DNA from: an uncultured Cloacibacterium sp.
Lineage (GTDB): Bacteria > Bacteroidota > Bacteroidia > Flavobacteriales > Weeksellaceae
Length of the DNA stretch: 64,000 bases
Assembly (NCBI GenBank): GCA_964530915.1
Contig: CAZHCK010000001.1
Location: forward strand, 4,012-68,011
Direction: 5' to 3'
Both the position numbers and the translations under genes were made by a program. The notes under the pieces were generated by a model. That model did not search any database. It was not told where the DNA came from and saw nothing but the letters and a program-made list of their open reading frames with translations. Shown here in pieces: positions 3,907-24,456 of the stretch (position 1 is its first letter; each line of letters opens with the position of its first letter).

Positions 3907-4980
3907 ATGAAAATTTTGAAATTTCTACCTCTTTTAGTGTTACTCCCGTTTTTGAGTTGCAGCAGTAATGAAGATGAACCTACGCCAACTCCCGCAGAAA
4001 CGATGTATTTCCCTAATAATACAGACAACAATTGGGAAACCAAATCTATTGCCAGTCTCGGTTGGAATCAAAGCGCAGTGCAACCGCTTAAAGATTTTTT
4101 GGCAGAAAAACATTCTAAATCTTTTATGATTTTGGTAAACGGTAGAATTGTGATGGAAGAATATTTCAACGGGCATTCTGCTACCGCAACTTGGCCATGG
4201 AACAGCGCTGGAAAAACGTTGGTTTCTACTACCACAGGAATTGCACAACAAGAAGGTTTACTGAACATCAACAATAAAGTTTCTCAATATTTAGGAAACG
4301 GCTGGACTAGCGAACCTCTGGAAAAAGAAAACCTCATCACGCCAAGACATTTACTTACCATGACTTCGGGCTTAAATGACGAAAGCAATTGGGTAATCAA
4401 ATCTAACCTCACGTATTTGGCAGATGCAGGAACGAGATGGTCTTACAGCAATGTTTTTCAGAAATTAATAGATGTAGTTGCCGCTTCTAGCAACCAAACT
4501 TTTGAGAATTATTTTAATGCCAAACTGAAAAATAAAATCGGGATGGATGGTTTCTGGAATTTCGGGACTATTTTCACCATTTATCATAGCAATACCAGAA
4601 GTATGGCGAGATTTGGACTGCTTTTCCTGAACAAAGGAAAATGGAAAAATGAACAAATCATCAATGAAACTTATCTGAACGAAGCCATTTCTACTTCTCA
4701 AGATATCAATCCTTCTTACGGTTATCTTTGGTGGCTCAATGGAAAATCCAAATATATGGTTCCAGGTTCGCAAACGGTTTATCCCACTGCTTTAGTTCCT
4801 AATGCTCCTGCAGATATGTATGCAGCAATGGGCGCTGAAGATCAAAGAATTTACGTAATTCCTAGTAAAAATATGTTGGTCATCAGAATGGGTGATGCTT
4901 CGGATCCACAGAATCCTAATTTCGCATTGTCTGGTTTTGATGCAGCACTTTGGGATAAAATCAATGCGATGATAAAATAG
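3907..4980 (+). CDS. Serine hydrolase (beta-lactamase/AmpC family) lipoprotein
   Basis: Lipobox FLSC, SxxK motif WNSAGKT, LLTMTSG, YSN, YGYLWW. Confidence 0.85.
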   Translation: MKILKFLPLLVLLPFLSCSSNEDEPTPTPAETMYFPNNTDNNWETKSIASLGWNQSAVQPLKDFLAEKHSKSFMILVNGRIVMEEYFNGHSATATWPWNSAGKTLVSTTTGIAQQEGLLNINNKVSQYLGNGWTSEPLEKENLITPRHLLTMTSGLNDESNWVIKSNLTYLADAGTRWSYSNVFQKLIDVVAASSNQTFENYFNAKLKNKIGMDGFWNFGTIFTIYHSNTRSMARFGLLFLNKGKWKNEQIINETYLNEAISTSQDINPSYGYLWWLNGKSKYMVPGSQTVYPTALVPNAPADMYAAMGAEDQRIYVIPSKNMLVIRMGDASDPQNPNFALSGFDAALWDKINAMIK

Positions 4981-5010
4981 ATGCTAGATTCTAGATGTTA
5001 GATACTAGAT
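4974..5010 (+). repeat. 7-bp tandem array (agatNNt) starting at the stop codon
   Basis: tag atgctag attctag atgttag atactag; the inverted counterpart is at 5321-5348. Confidence 0.7.
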
Positions 5011-5018
5011 TTTTCTAA

Positions 5019-5181
5019 TTTAAAACGCAAAGATTTTTAACAAATTTTTCATGCTTTAAGTGAGCAAAGTTGACGAATAAATTCGTTTTTAAGCTTTCGC
5101 TTTTTCAATTCGCTTGCGAATTTTAGCTTTGCTTTCTTATTAAATATTAGTTTTTATTATTCAGAATCTTTGCGTTTTAAA
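5019..5181. repeat. MITE/REP-like multi-palindromic element, copy 1
   Basis: Perfect 17-bp terminal IR tttaaaacgcaaagatt / aatctttgcgttttaaa; internal nested palindromes; homologous to 37844-37995. Confidence 0.8.
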
Positions 5182-5348: not shown

Positions 5349-5991
5349 AATGCTCAAACCAAATATCTTGGTATTTCACACCTGCTTCGATTGGTAATTG
5401 CAACCAGTTATTCTGAGGAACAATTGGGCAACTGTAATCGGTAGCGTTATAAGCACAAAAAGGATGATAAGCTTTATTGAAATCAATAATCAATTCATCA
5501 TTTTGAGGAATTCTTAAGTCCAAATATCTTCCGCCACCATACGTATCTTTACCGTTGGTTTCATCTTTGAAAGGCAAGAACAAATAATCCTGATATTCTG
5601 GGTCATCTAACAAAGCTAAACTTTGATAAACCGTCAAAACTTGTTCTACTCCATTCAGCGTGAAATAGGCTTTCCCGAATTCTCTGTATTTTTTGGTTCT
5701 TCCAGACGAAGTAGGAATTTCAAAAGGAACCGCGTTTTCAGTTTTTACCAATTTCGCTTTTACACGATAGGTTAAATCGATAGGAAAAAACGGATGAGAT
5801 TTGAATTTCTTGAAATTAGAACCACGCAAAGGCGTTTCTTCTTCTGTTTTGTATTCTCGATTGAGTTCTTTTTGGAACGTTTCGATTTCTAAAATTTCTG
5901 CTGGAAATTGTTTTTTGTCGGTTTTATTTTTAAGACCTTGACCAAAGGCAAAACTTGAAACTAGGAGTAAAAGTAGGTAAATCTTCTTCAT
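5347..5991 (-). CDS. DUF1684 family protein
   Basis: Signal peptide; LFLPFKDETNGKDTYGGGRYLD and IDFNKAYHPFCAYN motifs. Confidence 0.85.
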   Translation of the reverse strand: MKKIYLLLLLVSSFAFGQGLKNKTDKKQFPAEILEIETFQKELNREYKTEEETPLRGSNFKKFKSHPFFPIDLTYRVKAKLVKTENAVPFEIPTSSGRTKKYREFGKAYFTLNGVEQVLTVYQSLALLDDPEYQDYLFLPFKDETNGKDTYGGGRYLDLRIPQNDELIIDFNKAYHPFCAYNATDYSCPIVPQNNWLQLPIEAGVKYQDIWFEH

Positions 5992-6381
5992 TTAAATTAA
6001 TTTTATAGTATAAACATCGCTTTCATTTCTATCAATATCGGTAACCAGAAAACCTCCTTCCTGCGGAATCTCTTCTACAAAATCAAAGATTTTACAATCC
6101 TTAGGCAATCCAGAAAAAATTAGGGTAAACCAATATTCTTTCACAGGCGGAACTTCCGTCCAATAAGGAAACATCGAGATATTTTCCCAGAATAAAAGTT
6201 GGCTTCTGTGCCCCGTGAATTTATCCACCAAGAACGTGGTGCGCCAAATTCTTACGAGATTTCCAATCAAATAATTATTCTGAAAACCACAATGCACGAT
6301 AACTTGTTTCTCTTGCTCGAATTTCGTGTCGAGTTGTGAGAGCAATTCTGGAGCAATATTGGGTTTGATAATGGTAGCCAT
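5992..6381 (-). CDS. Conserved hypothetical protein
   Basis: Clean 129-aa ORF abutting the DUF1684 gene in an operon with sdaA. Confidence 0.7.
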   Translation of the reverse strand: MATIIKPNIAPELLSQLDTKFEQEKQVIVHCGFQNNYLIGNLVRIWRTTFLVDKFTGHRSQLLFWENISMFPYWTEVPPVKEYWFTLIFSGLPKDCKIFDFVEEIPQEGGFLVTDIDRNESDVYTIKLI

Positions 6382-6452
6382 TGATAAAAATTCAACGGCA
6401 CAAGTTAAGAATTTTTAGAAAATAAATGGAGGTTATCTTCCTCAAAATTTCA

Positions 6453-7874
6453 TTAACATTCTGCCACGTTCACGGCAACAGCTAAACCACCTTCAGAAGT
6501 TTCTTTGTACTTAGAATTCATGTCAAGAGCGGTTTCCCACATAGATTTAATCACATCATCCAGAGTAACTCTGGCTTTAGAAGGATCACTTTCTAGCGCG
6601 ATGTGACAAGCAGTAATCGCTTTCATCGCGCCCATAGAATTTCTCTCAATACACGGAATCTGAACCAACCCGCCAATTGGGTCGCAAGTCAAACCAAGGT
6701 GATGTTCCATCGCAATTTCTGCCGCCATCATTACTTGAGCTGGAGTTCCGCCCGAAATTTCTGTCAAACCAGCTGCCGCCATCGCCGAAGAAACACCGAT
6801 TTCTGCTTGGCAACCTCCCATCGCTGCAGAAATGGTTGCATTTTTCTTGAAAAGCGTACCGATTTCTCCCGCTACTAAAATAAATCTGATGATATCTTTT
6901 TCTGAGTTGAATTCTGTAAAAGTTTGAGAATACATGAGCACCGCAGGAATTACACCACTCGCTCCGTTAGTTGGCGCCGTGATAATTCTACCAAAACTGG
7001 CATTTTCTTCGTTTACTGCCAATGCAAAACAAGAAATCCAACGGGTAATTTGATTGAAATCTTTTGGAGAATTTTTTACCGCAGCAAACCATTCGTTTAT
7101 ATTTTTGTAAATAACGTCCTCGCCTAATAATTTTCGATTGAAATCTGCAGCTCTTCTCGTTACATTAAGTCCACCCGGTAAAACCCCTTCTTTATTAACA
7201 CCTTTGTAAATGCATTCTTTTATTTGTTGCCAAATGTAAAGCGCTTCACTTCTAGTTTCTTCTTTGGTTCTCCAAGCTTCTTCATTGATGTACACTAAAT
7301 CAGAAAGTCTTGCAACGCCTAATTTTTCACAATATTTGGAAATATCTTCGCCTTTATGACAAGGATAAGGTGTTCTAATACAGTGACTTTCTATAGAATT
7401 ATCTTCTTGCGTCGCTACAAAACCGCCACCTACAGAATAGTAGTCTTTTTCTAAAATTTCGCCGTTATTAAAAACCGCTTTGAAAATCATTCCATTTGGG
7501 TGAAAATCTAAAGATTTTTGCATATTGAGCACCAAATGTTTTCCATAAATAAAAGGAATTTCTTTTTCAGCACCTAAAATCAATTTTCCAGAATTTTTGA
7601 TTTCGGCAATTTTAGCATCTATTTTATCGGTATCTATTTTTTTAAAATTTTCGCCGCTTAAACCGAGCATTCCGGCAATATCTGTTCCGTGACCGATTCC
7701 TGTTTTGGCAAGCGAACCAAAAAACTCTACATACACTTCTGCCACCTCTGAAATCTGGTGATTTCTTCTGATTTCGCTCAGAAACATTTCCGCTGCATTC
7801 CAAGGTCCCATCGTATGAGACGAAGACGGCCCAATTCCTACTTTTATGATTTCAAAAACCGAAATACTCTCCAT
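6453..7874 (-). CDS. sdaA: L-serine ammonia-lyase (Fe-S dependent)
   Basis: [48 protein letters not shown]. Confidence 0.95.
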
Positions 7875-8032
7875 ATTGATTATTGATAAATGATTTTTAC
7901 AAAGATAAAATTATTAGGCAAACCATAAAAAATTATTCATCCTTAAAATTTTGAAAATACACCTCCAAATTTTGTAACAGATAAGACACTTATTCTCAAT
8001 TAATTTGCTCTTAAAAAAACAACTCATTTCCT

Positions 8033-16427: not shown

Positions 16428-17423
16428 TTATTCTTCATAATTTTTATATGCAATTCTAAGTTTATGCATTATTCTCTTCCTTAACTTAGTAGGTTGAATA
16501 ATTTTAATAGATTCTCCAAAGCCTAATATCACTCTTTCTAATTCAAAATTAATTTGAACAGAGATTTTAAAAACCGTTCCATCTTCTAATTCTTCAATTA
16601 TTTCTTGAGTATGATGAAAAGGTTTTGTTTTTACATATGGAGCATTATTTTTATCAATCCAAAAAATCACATTCATGGGTCTATTCCTTTGAGAAACAGT
16701 AACACCAATTACTTCCTTAAAAAAATGGTCTCCATCAATATTTTTATCGATATACTCTGCATTAATTTTCTCAATACTAATAACTCTATCTAAAGCTAAA
16801 GTAAGATAAGTCATTTCCTCCCATGCAATTAAAAACCATCTGTTATTATATTCTTTCAAAAGTTGAGGATGAATGATATAGTAATTTGTTTCTCTAGCTT
16901 TAAAAGATTTATATTCGATTTTTAAAACATTTTTATTGAGGATAGCATCGTATAAAGTGTCTATAAATTCCAAGCCTTTTAATCTCTCATTTTTGTCTAA
17001 ATGAATAATGGCTTTTTGTTTTGAAGCATAAACAGAATCTTCTAATTTTTGAATTATGCCATTCATTTCCTTAAAAATAGAAAAATCTTTAAATTGTTTT
17101 AAAATTTGTACCGCATCATTCATTACTTTAATATCATTCTCATTTACTGGAATATTCTTAATGCTAAAATCAGGCTCAGAATACTTATAAAATTTTTTTT
17201 GAAAAACTTCAATAGGTGCATTATAACCCAGCTTTTCGCTGCGCATATTCTGAATATCTAACTGAACTGTTCTTTTACTCACTAAATCGTATTTCCCCTC
17301 GTATTCATACAAAGCATCAGAACAAGCGTCTATTAAATCTTCTAAAGTCCAGAGTTTAGTTCTATTTCTTAAGCAATTATCAATGGTTTTATAACGAATT
17401 AAAGCGTTTTTGTTTGAGGACAT
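16428..17423 (-). CDS. WYL-domain transcriptional regulator (HTH-WYL-WCX, PafC-like)
   Basis: MSSNKNALIRYKTIDNCL N-terminus, SKRTVQLDIQNMR HTH, HPQLLKEYNNRWFL, LALDRV, ILGFGESIKIIQP. The start is probably the internal ATG. Confidence 0.92.
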   Translation of the reverse strand: MSSNKNALIRYKTIDNCLRNRTKLWTLEDLIDACSDALYEYEGKYDLVSKRTVQLDIQNMRSEKLGYNAPIEVFQKKFYKYSEPDFSIKNIPVNENDIKVMNDAVQILKQFKDFSIFKEMNGIIQKLEDSVYASKQKAIIHLDKNERLKGLEFIDTLYDAILNKNVLKIEYKSFKARETNYYIIHPQLLKEYNNRWFLIAWEEMTYLTLALDRVISIEKINAEYIDKNIDGDHFFKEVIGVTVSQRNRPMNVIFWIDKNNAPYVKTKPFHHTQEIIEELEDGTVFKISVQINFELERVILGFGESIKIIQPTKLRKRIMHKLRIAYKNYEE

Positions 17424-17446
17424 CTTAAAAATTTTAATAAAATTAA

Positions 17447-18895
<1,449 letters not shown>

Positions 18896-18924: not shown

Positions 18925-19024
18925 GGCGCAGTAGCTCAGATGGTAGAGCAACGAATCACTTTTCGCTTTTGGCAAAAAAAGTTCCTAAATAAGTGTGTCA
19001 CAGGTTCGAGTCCTGTCTGCGTCT
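18925..19024 (+). ncRNA. tRNA-like (YrlA/Y-RNA-like) ncRNA with intact acceptor, D and T arms and a 49-nt replacement of the anticodon/variable region
   Basis: Acceptor GGCGCAG/CUGCGUC, U8A9, D arm GCUC-AGAUGGUA-GAGC, T arm ACAGG-UUCGAGU-CCUGU. No 5-bp stem with 7-nt anticodon loop. No encoded CCA. Confidence 0.8.
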
Positions 19025-19028
19025 TTTT

Positions 19029-19204
19029 AAACTGATAAAAAAGTTCCTATATTTGTAACTGTTAAATACTATACTTTTCATCAGTTTAAAAAATAAATAA
19101 AGGCAAAAGGAGTTCCTATTTGACTTTCCACATTTACTCCCCGCTTTTTTATAAATATAGGTAAAAGGAGTTCCTATACATTTTAAAATTTACTCCTCAC
19201 TTAT
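19029..19204 (+). ncRNA. Three tandem stem-loops sharing an (A/G)(A/G)AGU-UCCUA...ACU(U/C)(U/C) motif
   Basis: Hairpins 19029-19087, 19099-19148, 19157-19204; GTTCCTA at 19043, 19112, 19170 (and 18981 in the tRNA-like RNA); outer stems differ in sequence but still pair. Confidence 0.72.
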
Positions 19205-19220
19205 TTTAAATATTTAAACA

Positions 19221-20978
19221 ATGAAAACATTAAAATTATTTTATACAGTTCTCGCAAAAGAATCCGGTGAAAAACCTTTTATTTCTGATGATGGTTTTGT
19301 AATTGACTCAAATGCAATCTGGGCAAAAAAAGAAATCATAAAGTACTTTTCTAAAGAAAAATTAAGCGGAAAAGATCTAAACGCTACCTTTCATAAATCT
19401 TGGAAAACCATAAAATACAGCACTAGAAACCAATTGTTTGTTGAGCAAGTTTTGCATTATATTTCTACATATGGAAGTAATTTTCAAGATGAAATTTATA
19501 TTCCAAATGAAATTTTGAATATTCCTGATGCAAAGCTTTCTTTCAAAGTAATCAAAGGTATTTCTAAAGAAGAAATGATTGAAAAATGCTTGAATTTACT
19601 GAATTCAGGAATCGCACTACAAGAAGAAACAATAGATGATGTATTTTCAATTTTAATAGACGAACTTGATTATAAATTCACTGGAAACGAGAACATTAAG
19701 AATAAGGAAGCCATTGCAAAAATTGCAGATTTATTCCATATCTATCCTGAAAATCCAGTAGAATTTTTCAGATATATCATTTATAAAAGTGCGCAAACTA
19801 CTTTATTAATTAAAAATGATGAAGTGATTTCGGCAATAAAAGAAAGCAAATTCAATCCTTCTCAAGCATTTAAAGATTTTGGATTAGAAAAAATGGCTGA
19901 AATTTTCAACCGATTCAAACCACTTTTTTTGGCTTTCAAAAATAAATGTCCAAAAACCATTAATGCGATTTCAAAATTATCAAAAAAACATCATAAACCT
20001 TTGGTTTCTAATCCATTGAACGATGCTACCAATCAAATTCTTACCGAAAATGATTTGCATTGGTTAGAAAACGCAACTCCATTTGCTTTGTTCAAGGCTT
20101 TATCTGCTTGTTATAATAGAATGAACGGTCAAGATACATTTGCCTACAGAATTAGAAACGGAAAATCTTGGGTACAAAAAGATGTGGTGAAAAATGTAAA
20201 TAAAAAAAATTACGATTTTATTCTACAATTTCTAAAATCTAAATTCGATTTTACAAATCTGAAAATTTACATTCCAGAAGAGGTGAAATATGCATTGCCT
20301 ACTTCCGAAAAAATGTTTGTAGGAAATATCCCAACAGGAAGCAGATTTTATGGCAAAAAATTAGCAATTGGTATTTATTGGGAAGATTCTTGGGGAGCAC
20401 ATGATTTGGATTTATCGGGTCTAAATATTGGTGGGAAAATTGGCTGGAATTCATCCTACAAGCAAGATGAAGGAAACTTAATGTATTCTGGTGATATGAC
20501 TTCGGCTCCAAATGGTGCAGTAGAATATTTGTATGCAAATAAAGGTTTGAACTACCCGACTTTAATTTTAAATAGTATTTACAGTGGAGATTCAAACTGT
20601 GATTACAAAATTATTGTAGGTAAAGGCGAAAAAATTTCTAAAGAATATATGATGAATCCTAATGCAGTTTTTGCTGAAATAAAATGCAAATCCGTGCAAA
20701 GACAAACCGTTCTTGGAATGCTTTTGCCAAAAAACGACAAACAATGTTTTGTTTTGTTGAATTTCGGAGCAGGACAATCCCGAGTTTCTGGAACCAGCAA
20801 ACTTTCTACTTTGGCTACCACTGCTTTGTATCAACAGTGGAACAGACCTCTCACTTTTAATAAATTAGTAAGTGAATTGGGAGCTCATTTGGTTTACTAT
20901 AAAGATGGAGTAGATTATGATTTTTCTTTAGAAAATTTAGAAAAAGATAGTTTTATAAAGCTGTTCCAAAGAAACTAA
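19221..20978 (+). CDS. Large hypothetical protein: helical N-terminal region plus C-terminal TerD-like domain (possible Ro/TROVE-related protein)
   Basis: N-terminal NATFHKSW...EQVLHYISTYG; C-terminal IGIYW...HDLDLS and YSGDMTSAP..AVEY resemble TerD-family motifs. The TROVE relationship is inference. Confidence 0.7.
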   Translation: MKTLKLFYTVLAKESGEKPFISDDGFVIDSNAIWAKKEIIKYFSKEKLSGKDLNATFHKSWKTIKYSTRNQLFVEQVLHYISTYGSNFQDEIYIPNEILNIPDAKLSFKVIKGISKEEMIEKCLNLLNSGIALQEETIDDVFSILIDELDYKFTGNENIKNKEAIAKIADLFHIYPENPVEFFRYIIYKSAQTTLLIKNDEVISAIKESKFNPSQAFKDFGLEKMAEIFNRFKPLFLAFKNKCPKTINAISKLSKKHHKPLVSNPLNDATNQILTENDLHWLENATPFALFKALSACYNRMNGQDTFAYRIRNGKSWVQKDVVKNVNKKNYDFILQFLKSKFDFTNLKIYIPEEVKYALPTSEKMFVGNIPTGSRFYGKKLAIGIYWEDSWGAHDLDLSGLNIGGKIGWNSSYKQDEGNLMYSGDMTSAPNGAVEYLYANKGLNYPTLILNSIYSGDSNCDYKIIVGKGEKISKEYMMNPNAVFAEIKCKSVQRQTVLGMLLPKNDKQCFVLLNFGAGQSRVSGTSKLSTLATTALYQQWNRPLTFNKLVSELGAHLVYYKDGVDYDFSLENLEKDSFIKLFQRN

Positions 20979-21101: not shown

Positions 21102-23288
21102 TTATGCTTGTTCTGTTGGTTGTTCTCCTTCTGGTTTTGGAGCGTCTCCTTCAGTTCTTGGCTTTTGTTCTGGTCTTGGTGGTCTTGGTAAAAGAACTTT
21201 TCTCGAAAGTCTCATTTTCTTACGATCATCATAACCCATAAATTTCACTTCTACTTCATCACCTTCTGCATACGGAACTTTATCTAATCTCTTCCATTCG
21301 ATTTCTGAGATGTGTAGTAAACCTTCGGTTCCTTTAGCAATCGCTACGAAAGCACCGAAATCCATTACTTTTACTACTTTACCTTTATAAACAGTACCTA
21401 CAACTGGTACGAAAGTAATTTCGTTAATTCTAGCAATTGCAGCATTGATTTTCTCGCGGTCAGTTCCAGAGATTTCAATTCTACCAATTTCGCCCATTTC
21501 TTCAATAGAGATTACAGTATCCGTATCTTTTTGAAGCTGTTGGATAATTTTACCACCAGGTCCAATTACAGCACCTATGAAATCTTTAGAAATTTCTAAA
21601 ATTTCCATTTTCGGAGCGTGAGGTTTCACATCTGCTCTTGGTTTATCGATGGTTTTAAGGATTTCTCCTAAAATATGTAATCTACCTTCTTTTGCTTGAT
21701 TTAGTGCAGTTTCCATGATATCCATTGTCAAACCTTGAATTTTAATATCCATTTGACAAGCGGTAATTCCATCTGCAGAACCTGTTACTTTGAAGTCCAT
21801 ATCACCCAAGTGATCTTCGTCTCCTAAAATATCAGAAAGTACGGTGAATTTACCAGATTTAGGGTCAGTAATTAATCCCATTGCAATACCAGAAACTGGT
21901 TTTGTAATTTGTACACCAGCATCCATCAATGCAAGAGTTCCTGCACAAACAGTAGCCATAGAAGAAGAACCGTTAGATTCTAAAATATCTGAAACTACTC
22001 TGATGGTATAAGGATTTTCGTGAGGAATCATTCCTGCTAAAGCTCTTTGAGCTAAGTTTCCGTGACCAACTTCTCTTCTTGAAGTTCCTCTTAGAGGTCT
22101 TGCTTCACCAGTTGAGAATGGTGGGAAATTATAGTGTAGGAAGAATTTTTCGTCATAATTGATGGCAACAGAATCTACCATGTTGGCATCTTTCACTGAA
22201 CCTAAAGTTACCGCTGTAAGAGACTGAGTTTCACCTCTGGTAAAGATTGCAGAACCGTGAGCTCCTGGTAAATAATCGATTTCTGACCAAATCGGACGAA
22301 TCGTTTTAGGATCTCTACCATCTAATCTGATTCCTTCGTTTAGAATCATTTGACGCATTGCTTCTTTTTCTACATCGTGGTAGTAAATTTTAGCAAATGG
22401 TTCTACGTCTGCTCTTTCTTCTTCTGAATATTGAGAAAGGAATTCTTCTAAAACGGCAGCAAATTTTTCGTGTCTTTCTTCTTTCGCAGAAGGAGTTTTT
22501 GCTACGTTGTAAACTTTATCATAACATTCTGCCCAAACTTTCTCACGAATTTCTTCGTTGTGCGTTTCGTGGCAGTATTCTCTTTTGGTTTGAGATGCAG
22601 GAATTCTCGCTGCTAATCTTTCTTGTGCTTCGATTTGAACTTTAATTTCTTCGTGAGCGTATTTAATCGCTTCTAGCATTTCTGCTTCCGAAATTTCTTT
22701 CATTTCACCTTCTACCATTACGATAGAATCTTTGGTAGCACCTACCATGATATCTAAATCTGCTTTTTTAAGATTTTCGATACTTGGGTTGATAGAAAGT
22801 TCACCATCAATTCTTACTACTCTTACTTCAGACATTGGTCCGTTAAAAGGAATATCTGTAATTGCAATTGCAGCTGAAGCGGCTAAACCAGCTAAAGCTT
22901 CTGGCATTACTTCTTTGTCGTAAGAAATTAGGGAAATCATTACTTGAACTTCTGCGTGGAAATCTTCTGGGAAAAGCGGACGAAGTACTCTGTCTACTAA
23001 TCTCATGGTAAGAACCTCATCATCAGAAGGTTTAGTTTCTCTTCTAAAGAAATTTCCTGGGATTTTACCACCCGCATAGAATTTTTCTCTGTAATCTACT
23101 GTAAGAGGTAAGAAATCTACCCCTGGATTTGCGTCTTTGTTGGCTACAACTGTTGCAAGGAGCATCGTTCCGCCACATTTTACTACTACAGAACCATTAG
23201 CTTGTTTCGCTAATCTTCCTGTTTCAATGGAGACTTCTCTCCCGTCTTTCAATTGAAATTTTTCAATAATTGCTTCTGGAGCATTCAT
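21102..23288 (-). CDS. pnp: Polyribonucleotide nucleotidyltransferase (PNPase)
   Basis: [48 protein letters not shown] (VIGPGGK) and S1 domains. Confidence 0.97.
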
Positions 23289-23385
23289 AAAATTTACTGT
23301 CTTGTGCAATCCGTATTGATTGCGTTATTATTTAAACTCTTTAAATTTTCGATGGCAAAGATACGGAATTTAAAAAAGTTATAAC

Positions 23386-24013: not shown

Positions 24014-24283
24014 TTATTTTCTAATACCAAGTTCAGCAATGATAGCTCTGTATCTATTGATGTCTTTGTTTTTAAGATAATCTAACAATCTTTTTCTTTT
24101 ACCTACTAATTTAACTAGAGATTTCTCAGTAGCATAATCTTTGTGGTTTTTCTTTAAGTGACCAGACAAATGGTTAATTCTGAATGTGAATAAAGCGATT
24201 TGTCCTTCTGCAGAACCAGTGTTTGCAGCGTTTCCTCCGTGTTTAGCGAAGATTTCTGATTTTTTTTCTGATGTTAAGTACAT
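24014..24283 (-). CDS. rpsO: 30S ribosomal protein S15
   Basis: NTGSAEGQIALFT..INHL..HL..N.KD...SL.KLVGKRKRLLDYL. Confidence 0.97.
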   Translation of the reverse strand: MYLTSEKKSEIFAKHGGNAANTGSAEGQIALFTFRINHLSGHLKKNHKDYATEKSLVKLVGKRKRLLDYLKNKDINRYRAIIAELGIRK

Positions 24284-24456
24284 GCCAATATTATTTAATG
24301 ATTATTATGTAACGAAGTGCAAAAGTACAACTTTATTTTCAAACCGAAAAATTTATTCTCAGATTCTAGAGACATTCACTTAATAATGTTAACAAATCCT
24401 TAAATTTTATAAATAACTTACTGAAATTCTGCGTAAATTTGCATCATCTTTTTGAT

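Follow-up and report, generated by a model that had tools for sequence, protein, structure and literature searches.

What is a gene that keeps the acceptor, D and T arms of a transfer RNA (tRNA) and carries a foreign stem in place of the anticodon, and why does the same stem recur three more times before the next protein-coding gene? This question is raised by a locus in a 64,000-nucleotide (nt) stretch of DNA, referred to here as the window, from an uncultured Cloacibacterium sp. (GenBank assembly GCA_964530915.1, contig CAZHCK010000001.1, positions 4,012 to 68,011 of the forward strand). An earlier interpretation made from the letters of the window (the sequence-only reading) had proposed that the element at 18925-19024 is a tRNA mimic of the YrlA type with a divergent protein-binding motif. 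We followed up this proposal by comparing the locus with related loci from cells and viruses. The existence of a conserved structured RNA at this position is near certain, and on our analysis the system to which it belongs is best read as a tRNA-mimic RNA particle of RNA-repair loci, which would work like YrlA and Ro60 with unrelated parts. The elements on which the argument turns are the following, in coordinates of the window.

18925..19024, plus strand: tRNA-like RNA with acceptor, D and T arms and a module in the anticodon region (Rfam tRNA model, our own covariance model R1, covariation)
18958..18987, plus strand: permuted module inside the tRNA-like RNA (sequence; columns 40-71 of our alignment A3 invariant or covarying)
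19029..19087, plus strand: hairpin RNA H1 (folding at -15.7 kcal/mol, z = -5.45; inverted repeat; fits the module)
19100..19147, plus strand: hairpin RNA H2 (sequence, inverted repeat, folding)
19158..19203, plus strand: hairpin RNA H3 (sequence, inverted repeat, folding, module scan)
19221..20978, plus strand: X585, an uncharacterized protein of 585 amino acids, presumed RNA partner (linked to the array in 140 of 145 loci)

The arms of the tRNA-like RNA are present where the sequence-only reading had placed them. They comprise an acceptor stem of 7 base pairs (bp) with one G.U pair at 18926/19022 (GGCGCAG 18925-31 with CUGCGUC 19017-23), a D arm (GCUC 18934-37 with GAGC 18946-49, loop AGAUGGUA) and a T arm (ACAGG 19000-04 with CCUGU 19012-16, loop UUCGAGU). 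The discriminator is U19024, after which no CCA is encoded. The Rfam tRNA model RF00005 aligned with the full length of the RNA and scored 43.9 bits (E = 4.7e-6 for the whole window; gathering score, 29), and the match required a 40-nt insertion in place of the 13 model positions of the anticodon stem-loop. The long insert between the D and T stems had been correctly noted, but it measures 50 nt (18950-18999) and not 49. A canonical 5-bp anticodon stem with a 7-nt loop, U33 and an anticodon is not present in the window RNA. ARAGORN, from which a pseudogene call or none had been expected, returned forced solutions throughout: a mis-registered "tRNA-Lys" whose acceptor stem is mismatched and whose D stem has 3 bp and, with introns allowed, a "tRNA-Ala" for which it assumed an intron of 6 nt and a variable arm of 30 nt.

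As had been proposed, the insert contains a stem of ACUUUU (18958-63) and AAAAGU (18977-82), with UCCUA (18983-87) directly after it. Between the two strands of this stem lie a bulged C (18964), a short stem closed by a 3-nt loop (GCU 18965-67, UUU, GGC 18971-73) and an AAA bulge (18974-76). A 4-bp hairpin with a 6-nt loop (CGAA 18952-55 with UUCG 18962-65), also pointed out by the sequence-only reading as the best anticodon-like structure, can be drawn in the window but is not supported by the homologues. The folding energy of the single sequence is unremarkable (z = -1.96); the strong evidence for the tRNA-like RNA is comparative.

That evidence was drawn from 80 cellular loci, mostly of Chryseobacterium with some of Kordia, Aquimarina, Algibacter and Winogradskyella, which were fetched with the alignment of closer homologues of X585, and from 65 IMG/VR contigs encoding X585 homologues of 69% down to 30% identity. 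We aligned 45 distinct tRNA-like homologues (alignment A3), from which an RNAalifold consensus and the covariance model R1 were derived. The consensus consists of the acceptor, D and T arms and the module hairpin; a base stem matching the anticodon stem (4 bp; A3 columns 28-31 with 93-96) was added to it. The 28 consensus pairs, base stem included, were 99% paired across the 45 homologues, and 13 of them showed compensatory change, against 5.6 in shuffled alignments (none of 500 shuffles reached 13). In a control with the partners slid, pairing fell to 32-51%. R1 scored the window RNA at 105.5 bits and ordinary tRNAs at 45.5 bits or less, so that a covariance model built from homologous loci, which the sequence-only reading had suggested as a check, separates the tRNA-like RNAs from ordinary tRNAs. 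At 74.9 bits or more, R1 found 66 tRNA-like RNAs, in 64 of the 80 cellular loci and in the window, and in the viral contigs it found 14 more at 59 bits or above, beside X585 homologues of 31-32% identity.

An RNA that ARAGORN and Rfam see as an odd tRNA, and whose anticodon-like stem is degenerate in the window, could be a decaying tRNA pseudogene that received a chance insertion. That 64 of 80 related genomes and some distant phage contigs have kept it, with compensatory changes, refutes this explanation, to which we give next to no credence. The insert, for which random decay would have been expected, is instead the best-conserved part of the tRNA-like RNA in the alignment of homologues.

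The homologues carry 45-60 nt in the anticodon loop. Since most of them keep an anticodon stem of 4-5 bp and replace the loop, "anticodon loop replaced" is a more accurate description than the replacement of the entire anticodon arm, as first described; in the window RNA the stem has decayed to two pairs. In the distant viral tRNA-like RNAs the 5-bp anticodon stem is intact and the place of the loop is taken by a linker rich in A and U, by the module hairpin and by a second small hairpin (UCC...GGA), which the window RNA does not have. The linker on the 5' side of the insert is merely A/U-rich and ends in the module's own U-A-C, and no conserved anticodon-loop residues flank the insert. Identity pairs of the acceptor stem vary among homologues: the alanine identity pair G3.U70 (A3 columns 3/123) is present in 24 of the 45 tRNA-like RNAs, and the window RNA has C3-G70 and G2.U71. 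Two tRNA-like RNAs stand in tandem in locus L076. In the second small hairpin of the tRNA-like RNAs of L076 (3540-3556) and L078 (845-861), the loop of 7 nt, CUCAUAA, resembles a CAU anticodon loop and may be a vestige of an ancestral tRNA.

The three hairpins downstream of the tRNA-like RNA carry the same stem and motif, as the sequence-only reading had stated. H1 has the outer stem AAACUGAU/AUCAGUUU, an AA bulge, the inner stem AAAAGU (19039-44) with ACUUUU (19073-78), a bulged C (19079) and a loop beginning with UCCUAU. H2 reads AAGGC, AAA bulge, AGGAGU (19108-13), UCCUAU, and on the 3' side ACUCCC (19136-41), bulged C and GCUUU; this type has orthologues in nearly all Chryseobacterium loci. 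H3 reads UAGGU, AAA bulge, AGGAGU (19166-71), UCCUAU, then ACUCCU (19192-97), bulged C and ACUUA; it ends 18 nt ahead of the X585 start codon at 19221 and is the best-conserved paralogue across Flavobacteriia. H1-H3 thus follow one plan: the outer stem leads through an A-rich bulge into an inner stem of 6 bp that ends in GU/AC, the 3' side has a bulged C, and UCCUAU opens the loop. With the permuted copy in the tRNA-like RNA, the window holds four copies of the module at 18958-19203, upstream of the X585 gene at 19221-20978. AAARRAGTTCCTA occurs five times in the window, where 0.01 copies are expected; four of them fall within these 200 nt and the remaining one in a coding context. Rfam 15, with which the window and the related loci were scanned, has no family covering the hairpins.

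The octamer AGTTCCTA is also in excess in the window (13 sites against 1.8 expected, for example at 1399, 4794, 25173 and 51689). We set this excess aside as a signal of the module, as nine of the sites lie outside the locus in coding-like contexts and lack the module; there it is probably a codon-pair bias.

Across the related loci, the module accompanies the X585 gene. GTTCCTA is present in 2-5 copies within 420 nt upstream of this gene in all 80 cellular loci. A strict scan (GTTCC, a 6/6 inner stem with a 3' side starting with AC, a 4/4 outer stem, and bulges of 2-4 nt and 0-2 nt) of the 145 loci (1.21 Mb) found 376 modules on the gene strand against 11 on the opposite strand, while block-shuffled sequence gave a total of 24-40 for the two strands. 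As many as 352 of the modules start no more than 700 nt upstream of an X585 homologue, down to 30% protein identity. At least one module was found in 80 of 80 cellular and 60 of 65 viral loci (140 of 145 in total), and four of the five viral loci without one are contigs cut at the start of the X585 gene. The loci have two to seven divergent copies with variable loops, some of them with tRNA-like domains.

The consensus of the module is an outer stem ending in RRY, a 3-nt bulge A-(A/U/C)-A, an inner stem NNNNGU/ACNNNN, a single bulged C and a loop that begins with UCCUA and ends with U. The unpaired A-N-A, C and UCCUA are nearly invariant, and the four variable inner pairs take the form of 43 different words in the viral loci. 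Among 130 distinct trimmed hairpins, 8 of 11 pairs showed compensatory change, with 256 double-change cells against 81 in shuffles. Four direct repeats in a regulatory-looking intergenic region might otherwise have been taken for DNA operators of the WYL-domain transcription regulator encoded nearby, their RNA structure being incidental. The compensatory changes in both stems and the strand bias of 376 to 11 speak against such operators, as do the copy within the tRNA-like gene and the arrays of 60 viral loci without WYL; the data already contradict this explanation, and we regard it as highly improbable.

The module of the tRNA-like RNA had been described as a circular permutation of the hairpin stem, closed by a loop on the opposite side. 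Its covariation and the related loci bear this out, for both topologies of the tRNA-like fold occur there: one ends in the acceptor stem, and the other ends in the module stem and has a closed acceptor. The closed-acceptor form was found in L016, L052, L060, L071, L076-78, L100 (viral) and the cyanophage S-CRM01; the window RNA has an open acceptor. In some hairpin-type modules of several Flavobacteriaceae loci, of L100 and of S-CRM01, the loop holds the tRNA-like parts: first a T arm, next an acceptor-like stem closed by GAAA, GCAA or UUCG, and last a D loop or full D arm. In S-CRM01 (L146 3617-3735) the arrangement is complete, and the module 5' strand is followed by the T arm, an acceptor stem of 9 bp with UUCG as its loop, the D arm and the module 3' strand. 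The window RNA and the closed form share one order along the chain, running from the module 5' strand through UCCU, the T arm, the acceptor 3' strand, the acceptor 5' strand and the D arm to the module 3' strand, and differ only in the position of their ends. The closed-acceptor form is the topology of YrlA (Chen et al. 2014, PMC4201824), and the window RNA is its permutation, with ends like those of a tRNA.

Instead of independent RNAs, the hairpins, perhaps together with the tRNA-like element, could be a structured mRNA leader through which X585 or another factor controls the synthesis of X585. The array always precedes the gene directly and on the same strand, the last hairpin ending 15-60 nt before the start codon across loci, and convincing separate promoters or terminators were not found: a scan for sigma-70 promoters and for terminators, which is uninformative for Bacteroidota, showed no excess and no convincing separate signals. 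A leader of this kind is compatible with the RNA particle reading. As a full explanation it is unlikely, since two to seven divergent copies, some of them tRNA-like, exceed the needs of autoregulation, since some modules are found downstream of the gene (L101, L109, L112 and S-CRM01), and since everything that RNase P and RNase Z need for excision is present in the tRNA-like member.

X585, the presumed partner of these RNAs, had no match in Pfam, NCBIfam, PADLOC or PHROGs, and no Pfam domain, TROVE included, was detected in 45 diverse members of its family. Searches of PDB sequences with X585 and with its profile also returned nothing. An exhaustive HMMER search yielded 1360 representative clusters at 50% identity, nearly all of about 580-640 residues and aligned end to end; a second search from a distant member added no further names or taxa. 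Invariant in the 45 members are N161, E163, R184, N248, R312, K364, W387, D395, D397, S423-G424-D425 and E435. Many of the invariant residues are basic (R184, R231, K233, K240, R312 and K364), which would fit nucleic-acid binding.

AlphaFold2 modelled X585 with a mean predicted local distance difference test (pLDDT) score of 36 from the single sequence, and with a pLDDT of 91.3 and a predicted template modelling (pTM) score of 0.90 from 45 diverse homologues. In the model the N-terminal half is helical, a beta-sandwich follows at about 345-520, and the chain ends in a short tail that is again helical. Foldseek searches of the PDB with the whole chain gave nothing at E <= 0.001, and Ro60, SPFH proteins and solved TerD structures remained unmatched; X585 is therefore not a Ro60/TROVE ring, a vWA domain or an SPFH protein. 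Against BFVD, the full-length model matched a Siphoviridae "putative tellurium resistant like protein" (E = 5.5e-21) and proteins of Campylobacter virus IBB35 and Lactobacillus phage LpeD, and at the domain level it matched TerD-like proteins (E about 1e-5). In this model the C-terminal domain looks TerD-like, and X585 has DLDLS and SGDxT motifs that resemble what we take to be the calcium-binding motifs of TerD. Taken together, these data suggest that X585 likely binds the module, because the two are co-inherited across deep divergence, because the unpaired residues are invariant while the stems covary, and because X585 has many conserved basic residues.

Several RNA units that share one motif upstream of a co-oriented protein gene, in phages as well as chromosomes, also bring to mind a type III toxin-antitoxin system, in which the array would be processed into units that neutralize X585 as a toxin. 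The likeness to ToxI/ToxN lies in the structured RNA array ahead of the gene for a presumed binding protein. However, Tandem Repeats Finder detected no tandem repeats in the window array, whose four RNAs share just a 17-nt core; the units are diverged paralogues, and one member is tRNA-like. X585 is unrelated to ToxN and about three times larger, and it has no ToxN-like or other defence-family match in Pfam or PADLOC. Its neighbours are housekeeping genes here and tRNA arrays in lytic cyanophages. We consider a toxin-antitoxin function very unlikely.

Two further genes upstream of the RNAs belong to the locus.

16428..17459, minus strand: WYL/WCX-domain transcription regulator (Pfam WYL 1.2e-10, WCX 6.1e-12; PADLOC WYL 2.1e-24)
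17483..18895, plus strand: RtcB-family RNA ligase (Pfam RtcB 3.3e-34; phrog_1075 "tRNA splicing ligase" 1.2e-91, full length)

The called rtcB gene encodes 458 amino acids and its open reading frame (ORF) 470, with the motif APHGAGR at 18598-18618. The WYL gene is divergent from rtcB, a position kept in most Chryseobacterium loci. RtcB lies upstream of the RNAs in 68 of the 80 cellular loci and downstream of the X585 gene in three more: the Chryseobacterium order is WYL (minus), RtcB, RNAs, X585, and that of Aquimarina, Algibacter and Winogradskyella is WYL (minus), RNAs, X585, RtcB. No Ro60/TROVE gene is present in the window operon. The proteins of the window share about 70-75% identity with those of Chryseobacterium, and the locus is flanked by the housekeeping genes fhs, pnp and rpsO with its S15 leader. 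In Chryseobacterium loci, L001 (3640-3680) among them, a conserved hairpin, AACCGAAyCTTGCAGGTGTAAAAGCCTGTAAGGTT, stands between rtcB and the tRNA-like RNA; it is absent in the window.

Two features of the flanks were noted in passing. The PNPase gene (21102-23309, minus strand) is convergent with the X585 gene. This adjacency is suggestive, as Ro60 and a Y RNA work with PNPase in Deinococcus, but it occurs in none of the 80 related loci and is probably a coincidence. The S15-Flavobacteria leader (24281-24327, minus strand) scored 51.6 bits and lacks the 17 model positions of its sole internal hairpin.

In viral loci the company is different. Ordinary tRNA genes, up to 18 of them, lie within 3 kb of the X585 homologue in 20 of the 65, and in the cultured cyanophages S-CRM01 (g174) and S-CBWM1 (gp22) the X585 gene is found mid-array among the phage tRNA genes. 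S-CRM01 has six modules, five upstream of g174 and one downstream (5822-5885). Its hypothetical gene g173 (L146 3788-3934, minus strand) runs antisense over three module hairpins and is probably a spurious ORF. Flavobacteriaceae chromosomal contigs L052 (850-2860) and L076 (1003-2694) have arrays of 14-18 or more tRNA genes, followed by a gene for a PF04308 RNase H-like protein, the tRNA-like RNA or RNAs, the hairpins and the X585 gene. The invariant core of the system is X585 and the RNA array; RtcB with WYL on the one hand and tRNA arrays on the other are alternative partners, and both point to tRNA metabolism.

Two other stretches near X585 homologues were remarkable for their RNA content. 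Between the X585 homologue and a Band-7 gene in L052, 2 kb without long ORFs (5834-7880) contain many T-arm-like hairpins (GGTTCGATTCC variants), a D-arm-like piece, a partial Rfam tRNA match (7430-7484) and a weak R1 match (6937-7143); they may make up one large structured RNA, or be an accumulation of tRNA remnants. In the viral contig L094, a permuted transfer-messenger RNA (tmRNA; RF04321, 80.3 bits) at 4777-5029 directly follows the X585 homologue, among tRNA genes.

An insert located exactly in the anticodon loop, with an anticodon stem of 4-5 bp in most homologues and RtcB adjoining in Flavobacteriia, raises the possibility of a decoding tRNA whose intron is the module: X585 would cut it and RtcB would join the halves, a bacterial and phage equivalent of tRNA splicing in archaea and eukaryotes. 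RtcB is the splicing ligase of archaea and animals, and the intron-containing tRNAs of archaea and eukaryotes likewise have an insertion in the anticodon loop. The location of the unit in or beside tRNA arrays, and the CAU-like loop in the second hairpin of L076 and L078, would agree with this. Yet no anticodon loop can be recovered, its residues are not conserved on either side of the insert, and the same module is found in hundreds of hairpins without a tRNA body. The permuted mimics, their acceptor closed by a tetraloop, cannot be charged. By inspection, the 3-nt and 1-nt bulges of the module face each other and do not form a bulge-helix-bulge, and the insert, at 40-60 nt, is not long enough to be a group I intron. 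RtcB is missing from the viral loci, and the acceptor identity pairs are not conserved. We therefore think splicing improbable, a little more so than a leader.

We return to the reading of the locus as the source of an RNA particle. The tRNA-like RNA is, we believe with some confidence, a stable non-coding tRNA mimic, and the same module forms the base of three hairpin RNAs; we infer that the RNAs are expressed and processed into separate molecules. The module would be the binding site of X585, encoded immediately downstream, and the locus would make a small family of RNA-protein particles, much as Ro60 binds several Y RNAs. In the tRNA-like member X585 would occupy the anticodon position and leave the L-shaped tRNA body free for RtcB, RNase P, RNase Z, the CCA-adding enzyme and modification enzymes; alternatively, the tRNA-like RNA might occupy anticodon nucleases without offering them a cleavable or decodable loop. 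The particle, controlled by the WYL regulator, would then be an adaptor or a decoy in the repair or protection of damaged tRNAs, a role towards which we lean.

The chances are in our view even that these loci represent a previously undescribed class of ribonucleoprotein, widespread in Bacteroidota and tailed phages, as a convergent counterpart of Ro60 and the Y RNAs. With the same balance, a protein of about 600 residues with novel helical and TerD-like domains would bind modular RNAs through a helix-bulge-UCCUA element, and in conflicts over the integrity of tRNAs the particle would act together with tRNA gene arrays and RtcB.

Several points weigh against this interpretation. The sole evidence that X585 binds the module is their linkage, and arrays that are always directly upstream of the X585 gene on the same strand could be an mRNA leader. 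Because the 3' partners of the hairpins were chosen by complementarity, their percentage of pairing is inflated, though the diversity of pair types is not. In the window RNA the anticodon-like base stem is degenerate, with two of four pairs. The tRNA-like member is missing from 16 of the 80 cellular loci and is thus an accessory of the system, and a role in ligation cannot be general, as RtcB and WYL are absent from viral loci. Pfam TerD does not match X585, whose TerD-like assignment comes from predicted viral structures and from motifs that we take to be those of TerD.

Among known systems, the closest parallel is that of YrlA and other Y RNAs with Ro60 (Rsr), encoded in rsr-yrlBA-rtcBA operons (PMC4201824; bioRxiv 10.1101/312249). 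In both systems several small RNAs have a common helix for protein binding, which here is putative, and variable "effector" loops; one RNA has T arm, D arm and acceptor joined to the binding helix at the anticodon position; and the RNAs are encoded beside RtcB and also in phages. Even the YrlA topology is found among the related loci here, with the ends in the binding stem and the acceptor closed by GAAA or UUCG. The parts, however, differ. X585 has no TROVE or vWA domain and no structural match to Ro60, the module is of another sequence and shape, the window RNA ends in an acceptor stem, and the regulator is WYL here and RtcR there. The Rfam YrlA model RF02553 scored 15.8 bits in the window against a gathering score of 69, at the wrong place (18978-19065); it found nothing in 17 related loci at the gathering score, and nothing at E up to 10 in L060. 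The RNA is thus not a member of the YrlA family, given the failure of the Rfam model, the lack of a TROVE protein and the different binding element. Of the YrlA-like RNA that the sequence-only reading had proposed, the architecture holds, the functional analogy remains reasonable, and the family membership does not stand.

The b7a-tRNA (Burroughs and Aravind 2016), as it is described secondarily in bioRxiv 10.1101/312249, is likewise a predicted tRNA-like RNA encoded beside RtcB in some bacteria and a proposed cofactor of RNA repair. In that description it strongly resembles an authentic tRNA, whereas the RNAs studied here have a 40-60-nt module in the anticodon loop; a Band-7/SPFH gene is present in one of the 145 loci, 2 kb away, and is lacking from the window operon. 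Compared by this secondary description, the window RNA is not demonstrably a b7a-tRNA, as Band-7 is unlinked.

Another RNA that combines a tRNA-like domain, a large non-tRNA insertion and a dedicated protein partner is tmRNA, which also has two-piece and circularly permuted gene forms. It lacks a D stem and is charged with alanine, traits that are not conserved here, and the window RNA has no mRNA-like reading frame, pseudoknots or SmpB. In a literature search that covered few subscription journals, we found no work linking TerD-like proteins, RtcB and such RNAs, and no earlier description of the motif, of the tRNA-like elements of S-CRM01 or of non-coding RNAs in phage tRNA arrays.

To our knowledge, Ro60 with its Y RNAs is the sole established case of a protein with a modular set of small RNAs, one of them a tRNA mimic, encoded beside RtcB. 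A second system that follows the same logic with unrelated parts would, if true, make this design a recurrent solution and not a peculiarity of Ro60. It would also give a role to an unannotated protein family of more than 1000 clusters at 50% identity, and would account for gaps in the annotation of phage tRNA arrays and probably for one or more spurious ORFs there. The presence of the system in cultured cyanophages (S-CRM01, S-CBWM1) and in easily grown Chryseobacterium offers an experimental handle. Finally, a tRNA-like fold that occurs in nature in both circular permutations is of interest to studies of RNA evolution and to RNA design.

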